Origin: a virus
Lineage: Duplodnaviria > Heunggongvirae > Uroviricota > Caudoviricetes
IMG/VR virus record: IMGVR_UViG_2531839667_000017
Location: 1 to 41,654 of that record
Direction: 5' to 3' (one strand)
DNA: 41,654 nt
The notes beneath the pieces are model-generated. The model was given only the letters and a program-made list of their open reading frames with translations, was not told the DNA's origin and ran no database searches. The position numbers and the translations under genes were made by a program. This document shows positions 30,368 to 31,190 of the stretch, piece after piece. Every line of letters begins with the position of its first letter. Within the stretch, counting starts at the first letter, position 1.

Positions 30368-30635
30368 CTTCATCGTCACATAGCTGGTAACCAGTGGCCT
30401 GAAGAGACGTTTGGGTGATGTGATAGAGATCATTATTCAATTCGATTGAGAAAAATCATCATAAGGTTTATATCCATTTATTAGATTTTATGTGTATAAA
30501 TAGTTAAAAATGCACGATGTAGAGATATTTGTGCTTAACATCAATTAATCATTGCTAAATCGTGCTTATTGTTCAGAAATCGCCCAAGTCATATTGAAAA
30601 TCTGTTGGCGAACACCTATATAAGGAGTATAGTTA

Positions 30636-30998
30636 GTGACCCAAAACGTATTGCCAATCAACAAGAGCTTGCATGACCGAGCTGTTGATGAATTTAATCG
30701 TCTGCATGGAACAATGATTGGCGAGATTAGTGCAATGCTGAAAACAGCTAAAGTAGCGCCATTGGTGGATCTTCGTAAGAAAGATCCTACCTTTTCGAAC
30801 GTTGTCGCAGAATTACGGACATTCAGAGACGTATGTAATGCTCTGCTCCCATACTTTCGTGTAGATAAGACCAGCGAAATCGCTGTCATCGATAAGTTAC
30901 TTATACTGGCTAATGACCTGGCTCAAGCCATCGATGCTGACGATCCTGACGCATTGTGCGCAGCAATAGCAGCCCTTGATGTTGAGCCTTACATTTAA
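30636..30998 (+). CDS. hypothetical protein (120 aa) immediately downstream of cI
   Basis: GTG 30636-30638 with AAGGAG SD 8 nt upstream; soluble, helical-looking, no recognised motif. Confidence 0.6.
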   Translation: MTQNVLPINKSLHDRAVDEFNRLHGTMIGEISAMLKTAKVAPLVDLRKKDPTFSNVVAELRTFRDVCNALLPYFRVDKTSEIAVIDKLLILANDLAQAIDADDPDALCAAIAALDVEPYI

Positions 30999-31013
30999 AC
31001 GAGGGGAAAAAAA

Positions 31014-31109
31014 ATGACTAAAGCGTTTGACTATACTGCCGTTAGTAAGCTTTTGGCTGAAATGCGCGGATGTGTAGAGCGCGTTCAAAATCTACGCCGC
31101 GACTTTGAA
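31014..31109 (+). CDS. hypothetical small protein (31 aa)
   Basis: ATG 31014-31016 preceded by GAGGGG; found by reading the sequence. Confidence 0.35.
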
Positions 31110-31164
31110 GCTCACATCAGTCATTCACAAAAAGCGGCTTGATACTTAAGTTAGATGACAGAAC

Positions 31165-31190
31165 CCGGCCTCAGCGCCGGGTTTTCTTTG
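31165..31190 (+). terminator. intrinsic terminator closing the cI-proximal operon
   Basis: CCCGGC-ctcagc-GCCGGG hairpin followed by TTTTCTTT. Confidence 0.7.

Follow-up and report, generated by a model that had tools for sequence, protein, structure and literature searches.

What does a lambdoid prophage carry in the position behind its cI repressor gene where lambda itself keeps rexA and rexB, and what could such genes do for the lysogen? This question is raised by a viral DNA stretch of 41,654 nucleotides (IMG/VR record IMGVR_UViG_2531839667_000017; this whole stretch is referred to as the window), in which two small open reading frames (ORFs) of the same strand, ORF-A (120 aa) and ORF-B (42 aa), lie between a cI-type repressor gene and an intrinsic terminator. 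Judging from their conservation and genomic contexts, both genes are real, under purifying selection, strictly paired, modular, and located in this slot. The segment from approximately 30392 to 31190 is best read as an autonomous accessory ("moron") cassette in the variable cI-OL/PL slot of lambdoid prophages. As to its function, the pair could form an autonomous module with a toxin-antitoxin-like logic that is expressed in the lysogen and serves exclusion or abortive infection, a reading to which we assign somewhat less than an even chance.

ORF-A is encoded on the plus strand at 30636-30998 and starts with a GTG that is preceded, at a distance of 8 nt, by the Shine-Dalgarno (SD) sequence AAGGAG (30622-30627); the frame, its GTG start, and the AAGGAG had been described in the initial annotation of this locus. 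ORF-B, also on the plus strand, had been annotated as a 31-aa frame ending at 31109. Its own SD (GAGG, 31002-31005) had been correctly recognized, but the frame is longer and runs from an ATG at 31014 to a TGA stop codon at 31140-31142 (42 aa, 31014-31142). Both products match PHROG families with no assigned function (phrog_13858, 5e-73, for ORF-A, and phrog_12503, 4e-26, for ORF-B), their RefSeq entries are hypothetical proteins (WP_000193240.1 and WP_000158654.1, respectively), and all names found in public sources are "hypothetical" or "uncharacterized". Pairwise dN/dS ratios between the copies from E. coli, Citrobacter, Enterobacter, Serratia, Pantoea, and Hafnia were 0.02-0.16 for ORF-A and 0-0.35 for ORF-B, with synonymous sites often being saturated in these comparisons of both ORFs, and the SD and start codon of ORF-A are conserved. 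A 107-aa antisense ORF (30566-30889, minus strand) was rejected as spurious because it contains internal stops in each of the eight orthologues examined.

We assembled 58 loci with an ORF-A homologue, 57 of which are intact and 50 of which can be evaluated for the upstream gene. In every intact locus (57/57), ORF-B lies directly downstream of ORF-A with a gap of 12-31 nt, and even behind the ORF-A homologues that have diverged most (24-33% identity), an ORF of 40-45 aa is found at a distance of 26-31 nt. The ORF-A family comprised 36 proteins in an exhaustive profile search of 1.84 billion representatives and 14 in a word-indexed search of 5.8 billion clusters, with named members from Escherichia, Citrobacter, Enterobacter, Serratia, Hafnia, Pantoea, Xenorhabdus, Proteus, and Providencia. 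Among cultured phages, the pair was found in Proteus phage Pm34 only (gp26/gp27), again right behind the repressor. The whole cassette is present in 89 of 5426 complete E. coli genomes, and the best-matching E. coli genomes among the matches listed belonged mainly to strains of human, bovine, or food origin, with serogroups O26 and O103 among them. The exact ORF-A protein occurs on about 1000 contigs.

The position of the pair in the window is well defined. The preceding gene (29663-30367, plus strand) encodes a 234-aa cI-type repressor with a helix-turn-helix (HTH) domain and an S24 peptidase domain (Pfam Peptidase_S24 with 3.8e-16 and a weak HTH_3 match; phrog_4, transcriptional repressor, 8e-38), and it is separated from ORF-A by an AT-rich spacer of 268 bp (30368-30635) with a GC content of 0.295-0.355, as compared to approximately 0.44-0.48 in the flanks; both the gene and the spacer had been described as such before. 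Behind ORF-B, an intrinsic terminator equivalent to tIMM (31161-31190, plus strand) is indicated by its fold energy and U-tract. The initial annotation had noticed this terminator and placed the beginning of its stem at 31165, which has to be moved to 31161: the GC-rich stem of 9 bp (31161-31169/31176-31184) encloses a loop of 6 nt and is followed by a UUUCUUU tail up to about 31190, with a centroid energy of -16 kcal/mol (z = -2.2). The operator-like motif TTTATCAWWWTG has nine matches in the window versus 1.8 expected, and seven of the nine are grouped at 29579-29639, between cro and cI, and at 31371-31412, past the terminator. The latter cluster represents the OL-type operator repeats (31371-31412, plus strand) and marks the right-hand limit of the slot; it is followed by an N-like antiterminator gene (31533-31877, plus strand; phrog_271, "anti-termination protein N-like", 4e-25). 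As these operator-like repeats and the N-like gene come after the cassette, the cassette occupies the position of lambda rexA-rexB, between cI and OL/PL-N, which agrees with the original assignment to the rexAB slot.

In 46 of the 50 evaluable loci, the gene immediately before the cassette encodes an S24 repressor and has the same orientation. These repressors comprise at least 25 distinct sequences, which form about 11 clusters at 60% identity, and this diversity argues that the function of the cassette is independent of immunity specificity. The four evaluable loci that have no S24 cI upstream are L002, L009, L010, and L057. In Pantoea (L002), the pair is found at a prophage end beside umuD-like, O-acetyltransferase, and tail-fibre genes, and in L057, its neighbors are a dinI-like gene and a tail fibre gene. 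In Serratia marcescens (L009, 2735-4423), the pair follows an ORF of 152 aa that appears by eye to encode an Arc/Mnt-like ribbon-helix-helix protein; a divergent 57-aa Arc-like ORF and a putative 268-aa antirepressor gene lie alongside, an arrangement that by eye resembles P22 immI, and a 931-aa tail-type gene is found downstream. By this visual assignment, the pair of L009 would again adjoin a lysogeny-maintenance repressor, albeit of another class. The Xenorhabdus locus (L010) is a short contig. The positions of the exception loci are typical of genes that are expressed from a repressed prophage.

That the cassette is exchangeable as a unit can be seen best by comparison with phage mEp506. 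Its DNA is 96% identical to the window over 28839-30414, including cI; the homology stops at 30414 and resumes at 31162, and between the same flanks, in the same slot, mEp506 carries a cassette that is annotated as HicA toxin, HicB antitoxin, and HicC "chaperone" (3282-4412 of locus L023). In Stx2 phage 86, the Ser/Thr kinase gene stk is annotated under the match to the region. Conversely, Citrobacter prophages with three other cI alleles share about 86% identity with the window across 30392-31185. The left junction (30392-30414, plus strand) is common to different backbones and cargos, with the Citrobacter homology beginning at 30392, and an exact copy of the 28-nt sequence CAGTGGCCTGAAGAGACGTTTGGGTGAT (30392-30419) is found in L013, where another cI allele ends. 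This sequence marks the switch of backbone homology and looks like a "boundary sequence" for recombination. On the right side, H-19B and many Stx phages share 31163-31250 with about 93% identity, which assigns the terminator and the sequence to the right of it to the backbone common to H-19B-like and Stx phages rather than to the cargo. According to these alignments, the mobile unit is the segment from about 30392/30415 to 31161/31185, containing most of the AT-rich leader and both genes. What was found is thus the behavior of a moron, namely the replacement by other cargo between homologous phages at discrete junctions (30414/31162). The cassette can also be lost, as seen in the E. coli viral contig L058, in which only codons 1-36 of ORF-A are left (2813-2923) behind the same cI and the N-like gene lies about 480 bp further on.

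Additional small genes accompany the cassette in some loci. An extra ORF of 110-124 aa (phrog_12509 or phrog_34525) lies between cI and the cassette in some Hafnia and other loci (L005, 4400-4732; L019, 3267-3641), which implies that the slot can stack several cargos. A convergent ORF of 63-74 aa is found right behind the cassette in Citrobacter, Pantoea, Hafnia, and related loci (on the minus strand in L012, 4548-4772, L017, 4563-4766, and L005, 5562-5753) and belongs to phrog_3975, phrog_5948, or phrog_33151, with a DUF2767 assignment in Pantoea. The window has no such ORF, and its terminator directly adjoins the H-19B-like OL/PL region.

The AT-rich leader (30415-30635, plus strand) is an untranslated, cassette-specific sequence, a leader or a putative regulatory spacer, that is partly conserved across genera, and approximately 220 bp of it moves together with the cassette between different cI alleles. 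It is this joint movement of leader and genes, together with the contexts of L002, L057, and L009, that suggests the autonomy of the cassette. Co-transcription with cI is plausible, since the genes are on the same strand, folding revealed no terminator-like structure between cI and ORF-A, and a single common terminator follows ORF-B. An own promoter of the cassette within the leader is likely, because the leader moves along with both genes and an S24 repressor is missing upstream of some copies; transcripts from PRM/PRE that read through into the cassette are just as possible.

Directly in front of ORF-A, a conserved block of about 45 nt (30590-30635, plus strand; ATTGAAAAT...TTGGCG...CTATATAAGGAGTATAGTTA) contains the SD and shows 62-84% identity to the window, as compared to 42-79% at the third codon positions of ORF-A. 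Two staggered pairs of promoter-like hexamers, TTGAAA-17-TATATA and TTGGCG-17-TATAGT, are present in this block and overlap the SD, and a promoter-like -35/-10 pair is kept in eight lineages. In a simple scan, TTGGCG-17-TATAGT ends 3 nt ahead of the GTG, so that the predicted start site falls inside ORF-A, and we therefore do not claim it as the cassette promoter. In the L019/L020 lineage, the block has the form TTGATT-16-TATAAT, and a new ATG follows 56 nt behind it. This arrangement was not taken as independent promoter support, as a 56-nt insertion that left a remnant would explain it. An Rfam scan of 29000-32500 gave no match, RNAalifold detected no conserved structure in the leader except for a weak 6-bp hairpin around the SD, and a conserved palindromic operator was not found in the leader, where inverted repeats are kept in close relatives alone. 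The block, which may act as a promoter, as a translational operator, or in another way, was also compared with the BstA system, in which a DNA self-immunity element spans the gene start (PMC8585504).

ORF-A is an acidic protein (pI 4.9; 4.2-6.2 across the family) that has no transmembrane (TM) segment, the maximum Kyte-Doolittle average over 19 residues being 1.22, and no signal peptide or similarity to virulence factors was detected. AlphaFold2 predicts an all-helical bundle with helices at residues 5-40, 43-47, 53-73, 79-100, and 104-115, followed by a tail of five residues, with a mean pLDDT (predicted local distance difference test) score of 81.8 when 12 sequences were used and 86.1 with 32 sequences. 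The family shares a helix-loop motif, GEISxMLxxAKLxPxxxLxxxNPSF, and the extreme C-terminus AIAALDxKPYI-COOH. Only the initiator methionine and the three structural positions L46, P51, and L60 are invariant, and for this reason we read ORF-A as a binding protein or effector, probably not an enzyme. Candidate catalytic histidines, His13 and His24, are kept in close relatives but not across the wider family and were rejected, and an assignment to the HEPN group (Rx4-6H) was likewise rejected, as the family alignment has no conserved Arg/His pair and no PDB fold matched.

Database searches with both products were negative within their scopes. Neither ORF-A nor ORF-B matched Pfam or NCBIfam, and PADLOC-DB v2 gave no match at E <= 10. 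Searches of PDB sequences with single-family profiles were empty or returned de novo designed bundles only, the latter being a compositional effect. A Foldseek comparison of the two AlphaFold2 models of ORF-A with BFVD and with the PDB as of April 2026 retrieved nothing but generic up-down four-helix bundles at E >= 0.3, such as cytochrome c', the FAT domain, and designed proteins. The initial annotation had described the 120-aa protein as uncharacterized, free of TM segments and assignable motifs, and not Rex-like, and these results, including the missing Pfam match to Rex, are in full agreement with that description.

ORF-B belongs to a family of 40-45-aa peptides that are mostly basic and amphipathic. 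The peptide of the window has a pI of 9.1 and no TM segment (maximum of the same 19-residue hydropathy measure 0.34), and a helical conformation is assumed. With a pI of 7.8-10 in 10 of 11 sequences, the charge of ORF-B is complementary to that of the acidic ORF-A family. The most conspicuous feature, and the clearest hint at a function, is the C-terminus, which reads ...SQKAA-COOH in the window. Among 26 distinct full-length sequences, which fall as low as 26-40% identity to the window peptide, 25 end with -AA and one with -VA, the observed endings being KKAA, QKAA, RKAA, KEAA, PKAA, PLAA, and KKVA. As all four alanine codons are used for the terminal alanines, selection acts on the peptide and not on the DNA. 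Known ClpX C-motif-1 tags have the form x-A-A (LAA of ssrA; NAA, PAA, and EAA), and C-motif-2 tags include RRKKAI of MuA and RAKKVA of YbaQ (PMC9775585 Table 2; PMC12723719). The free C-termini of ORF-B conform to this published pattern of ClpX C-motifs 1 and 2, and the tail thus looks like a conserved C-terminal ClpX-type degron.

These features can be combined into a proposed mechanism. In the lysogen, transcription of the pair would come from the cI promoters by read-through and probably from an additional promoter within the AT-rich leader. ORF-A, translated from its GTG start, would be the stable effector, and ORF-B would bind and neutralize it. With its ATG start and own SD, ORF-B may be made in excess over ORF-A, and, as suggested by the degron-like tail, it would be short-lived because ClpXP or a related protease continuously removes it. 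A superinfecting phage that halts host gene expression or disturbs the supply or proteolysis of ORF-B would then cause ORF-B to vanish, and the freed ORF-A could block a host or phage target, resulting in exclusion or abortive infection to the benefit of the prophage. In this scheme, we infer the A-B complex, the instability of ORF-B, the toxicity of ORF-A, and the anti-phage phenotype.

An exclusion or abortive-infection role is favored by the cargos of this hotspot, by the independence from the repressor type, and by the occurrence of HicAB(C) at the same site. The cI-N region is a mosaic hotspot in which the abortive-infection systems RexAB and BstA are found at the same position (PMC8585504), and Gifsy immunity regions also hold defence genes (PMC12724215); together with HicA/B/C in mEp506, these examples bear out the earlier statement that the slot is a recurrent home for lysogen-expressed exclusion genes. 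On the whole, the earlier interpretation of the locus appears reasonable and is strengthened by the obligate pairing, the fidelity to the slot across immunity types, the exchange of cargo, and the degron-like tail.

Several observations weigh against the toxin-antitoxin-like exclusion module. The consistently negative Pfam, NCBIfam, PADLOC, PDB sequence, and Foldseek searches leave the function with no support from homology. No motif of a toxin or an enzyme is found in ORF-A, in which mainly hydrophobic and structural residues are conserved, and ORF-B lacks the DNA-binding domain that is typical of type II antitoxins; its C-terminal AA could also have another purpose. Transcription from the best conserved -10-like hexamer would begin within ORF-A. 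The family is narrow, with 36 representatives and named members exclusively from Enterobacterales, unlike most broad defence families. Finally, the cassette is nearly absent from 72,556 plasmids, in which the single match is a dubious 2-kb record, and this near-absence argues that it is not a generic addiction module.

A more specific proposal is a hitherto undescribed two-component, protease-gated anti-phage system of lambdoid prophages, working by abortive infection or exclusion, in which the degron-tagged 42-aa peptide would be degraded continuously and act as a "dead-man's switch" on an orphan helical-bundle effector. Loss of the peptide upon infection, or a perturbation of ClpXP, would release the effector. 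Neither protein has any likeness to the catalogued families of defence proteins, toxins, or antitoxins. We put this proposal forward tentatively and consider it rather doubtful.

The pair could alternatively tune the switch of its own prophage and not act on other phages, for example, by engaging a host protease (ClpXP or FtsH) as a titrator or a substrate supplier or by influencing RecA-dependent cleavage, and thereby stabilize or time lysogeny, in analogy to CIII as a substrate and inhibitor of FtsH. Such a modulator of lysogeny or induction would fit with the tight linkage to repressor genes, which includes the non-S24 Arc/Mnt-like repressor in L009, and with the small size, amphipathic character, and protease-recognition-like end of ORF-B. 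There is precedent in lambda, where a protective effect of RexB on ClpP substrates, such as lambda O, has been reported and where FtsH is inhibited by the small helical protein CIII. However, the cassette accompanies at least 25 different repressors, some of its positions in prophages have no repressor upstream, and phages with a nearly identical cI region manage without it. No particular switch therefore depends on it, and we regard a modulator role as unlikely.

A further explanation is pure addiction, in which loss of the prophage would be followed by decay of ORF-B and growth arrest by ORF-A, which would stabilize the prophage and have no anti-phage role. Although two small co-directional genes with strict pairing, a degron-like tail on one partner, and HicAB(C) in the same slot of mEp506 would suit a prophage-stabilizing toxin-antitoxin system, the cassette is virtually missing from plasmids, where addiction modules thrive, and integrated prophages are seldom lost by segregation. 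Moreover, the antitoxin-like partner has no DNA-binding domain, and the searches found no similarity to a known toxin family. We therefore judge addiction on its own to be improbable.

We attribute a similarly low probability to conversion genes that would increase host fitness, be it by stress tolerance, colonization, or regulation of host genes via protein-protein interaction. The copies of L002 and L057 are indeed found among conversion- and SOS-type morons (O-acetyltransferase, umuD-like, and dinI-like) at prophage ends, and the sources of the E. coli matches listed, including the O26 and O103 serogroups, would be compatible with such a role. On the other hand, the proteins show no signal peptide, TM segment, or similarity to virulence factors, and the main location is an immunity-region hotspot whose characterized cargos are anti-phage. 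Chance ORFs or a decaying, non-functional remnant, as the truncated ORF-A of L058 might suggest, are effectively refuted, with a negligible residual probability, by the strong purifying selection on ORF-A and ORF-B, the conservation of the pair in named members of at least nine Enterobacterales genera, the conserved SD and start codon, and the abundance of the exact ORF-A protein.

The cI-N region is one of the few places that are expressed from a silent prophage, and its characterized cargos (RexAB, BstA, Stk, HicAB, and the Gifsy systems) serve exclusion or defence, are toxin-antitoxin systems, or both. In this context, a cassette of about 750 bp that occurs in several genera, including pathogenic E. 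coli lineages (O26, O103, and others), and has no detectable relatives among the known systems is a solid candidate for experimental work, not a proven novelty. Should it act as a defence or toxin-antitoxin-like module, it would provide a new effector fold with a minimal 42-aa proteolysis-tagged regulator, which would be useful for understanding phage-phage competition in polylysogens of the Shiga toxin-producing E. coli type and as a small regulatory part. If it modulates lysogeny via a host protease, it would bear on the tuning of prophage switches.

Some neighboring features of the window are worth noting. Right behind the N-like gene, another uncharacterized early ORF at 31811/31880-32272 (plus strand) belongs to phrog_7374 (5.5e-79), a family with no assigned function, and had no Pfam, NCBIfam, or PADLOC match; a relationship of this ORF (31880-32272) to ORF-A was rejected, as the hhalign probability was 0.2%. 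An IS21-family element (33271-35072, minus strand) with istA (340 aa, rve and HTH domains) and istB (260 aa, IstB_IS21, 1e-111) lies within the leftward early (pL) operon, with a RecT-like gene (35125-36108) immediately downstream of it. Expression of the early left genes is probably disrupted by this element, and the prophage may therefore be defective. Behind Q (22793-23416), no ORFs of the size of stx genes can be seen. The lambda-like character of the prophage is evident from cII, O, a DnaB-type helicase gene, Q, lambda-type head and tail genes, and a lambda-type integrase gene. The latter (Arm-DNA-binding and Phage_integrase domains) is followed by a pectinesterase-family gene within 39166-41654, which we take to be a ybhC-like gene of the host flank and which fits integration at the lambda attB locus.

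How does the cassette compare with known systems? Within the literature library that was searched, no paper mentions these proteins or their RefSeq accessions, and none of the published descriptions of Tai, HepS, GiPD474/remAIN, and BstA matches the ORF-A/ORF-B pair. HepS of Gifsy-1 is a HEPN-domain effector (PMC13043305), whereas ORF-A has neither a conserved Rx4-6H motif nor a matching fold. ORF-B is comparable to lambda CIII insofar as both are phage peptides in the range of about 40-55 aa with one amphipathic helix, which is assumed in the case of ORF-B, and may act via a host AAA+ protease. CIII, however, is a product of the pL operon that is made during infection and is not paired with a second gene, and ORF-B does not match Pfam Lambda_CIII.

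BstA of BTP1 and other prophages resembles the cassette in its location downstream of the prophage repressor, in its association with many different repressors, and in its occurrence in diverse prophages of Gram-negative bacteria; its conserved synteny has been interpreted as use of the repressor promoter (PMC8585504). In contrast to the pair, BstA is a single protein with the DNA self-immunity element aba, and ORF-A and ORF-B show no PADLOC or Pfam similarity to it. The cassette probably shares its regime of expression with BstA and RexAB and belongs to neither family.

With type II toxin-antitoxin systems, the cassette shares two small adjacent co-directional genes that are inherited together and of which one partner is plausibly protease-labile. 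It differs in that no homology to HicA, HicB, or any other toxin or antitoxin family was found, in that ORF-A has no nuclease-type motif or conserved HEPN-type Rx4-6H, and in that the putative antitoxin is a peptide of only 42 aa that lacks a DNA-binding fold and is encoded by the downstream gene. As far as can be told from the sequences, the architecture fits this class, whereas a known toxin fold and a DNA-binding antitoxin are missing. Partners that are controlled by ClpXP are known from Phd/Doc of P1 and SocAB of Caulobacter, which are unrelated to the cassette in sequence, and the -(K/Q)(K/E)AA or -KKVA end of ORF-B has the terminal motif, and the terminal motif alone, in common with the MuA and ssrA degrons. 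The HicA/HicB(/HicC) genes of mEp506 are, like ORF-A and ORF-B, small, adjacent, and co-directional, and they are an alternative cargo of the same slot.

The closest positional counterpart is RexAB of lambda, an abortive-infection system whose genes are co-transcribed with cI. RexA, the sensor, has 279 aa, and RexB has 144 aa with four TM segments, whereas the cassette encodes a soluble 120-aa bundle and a soluble 42-aa peptide, neither of which has a TM segment, a match to Rex in Pfam or PHROG, or a similar fold, and the AT-rich spacer of 268 bp behind cI is longer. In its genetic organization, on the other hand, the cassette corresponds to rexAB, as it consists of two genes on the cI strand between cI and OL/PL, is closed by a tIMM-like terminator, and is expected to be expressed in the lysogen.

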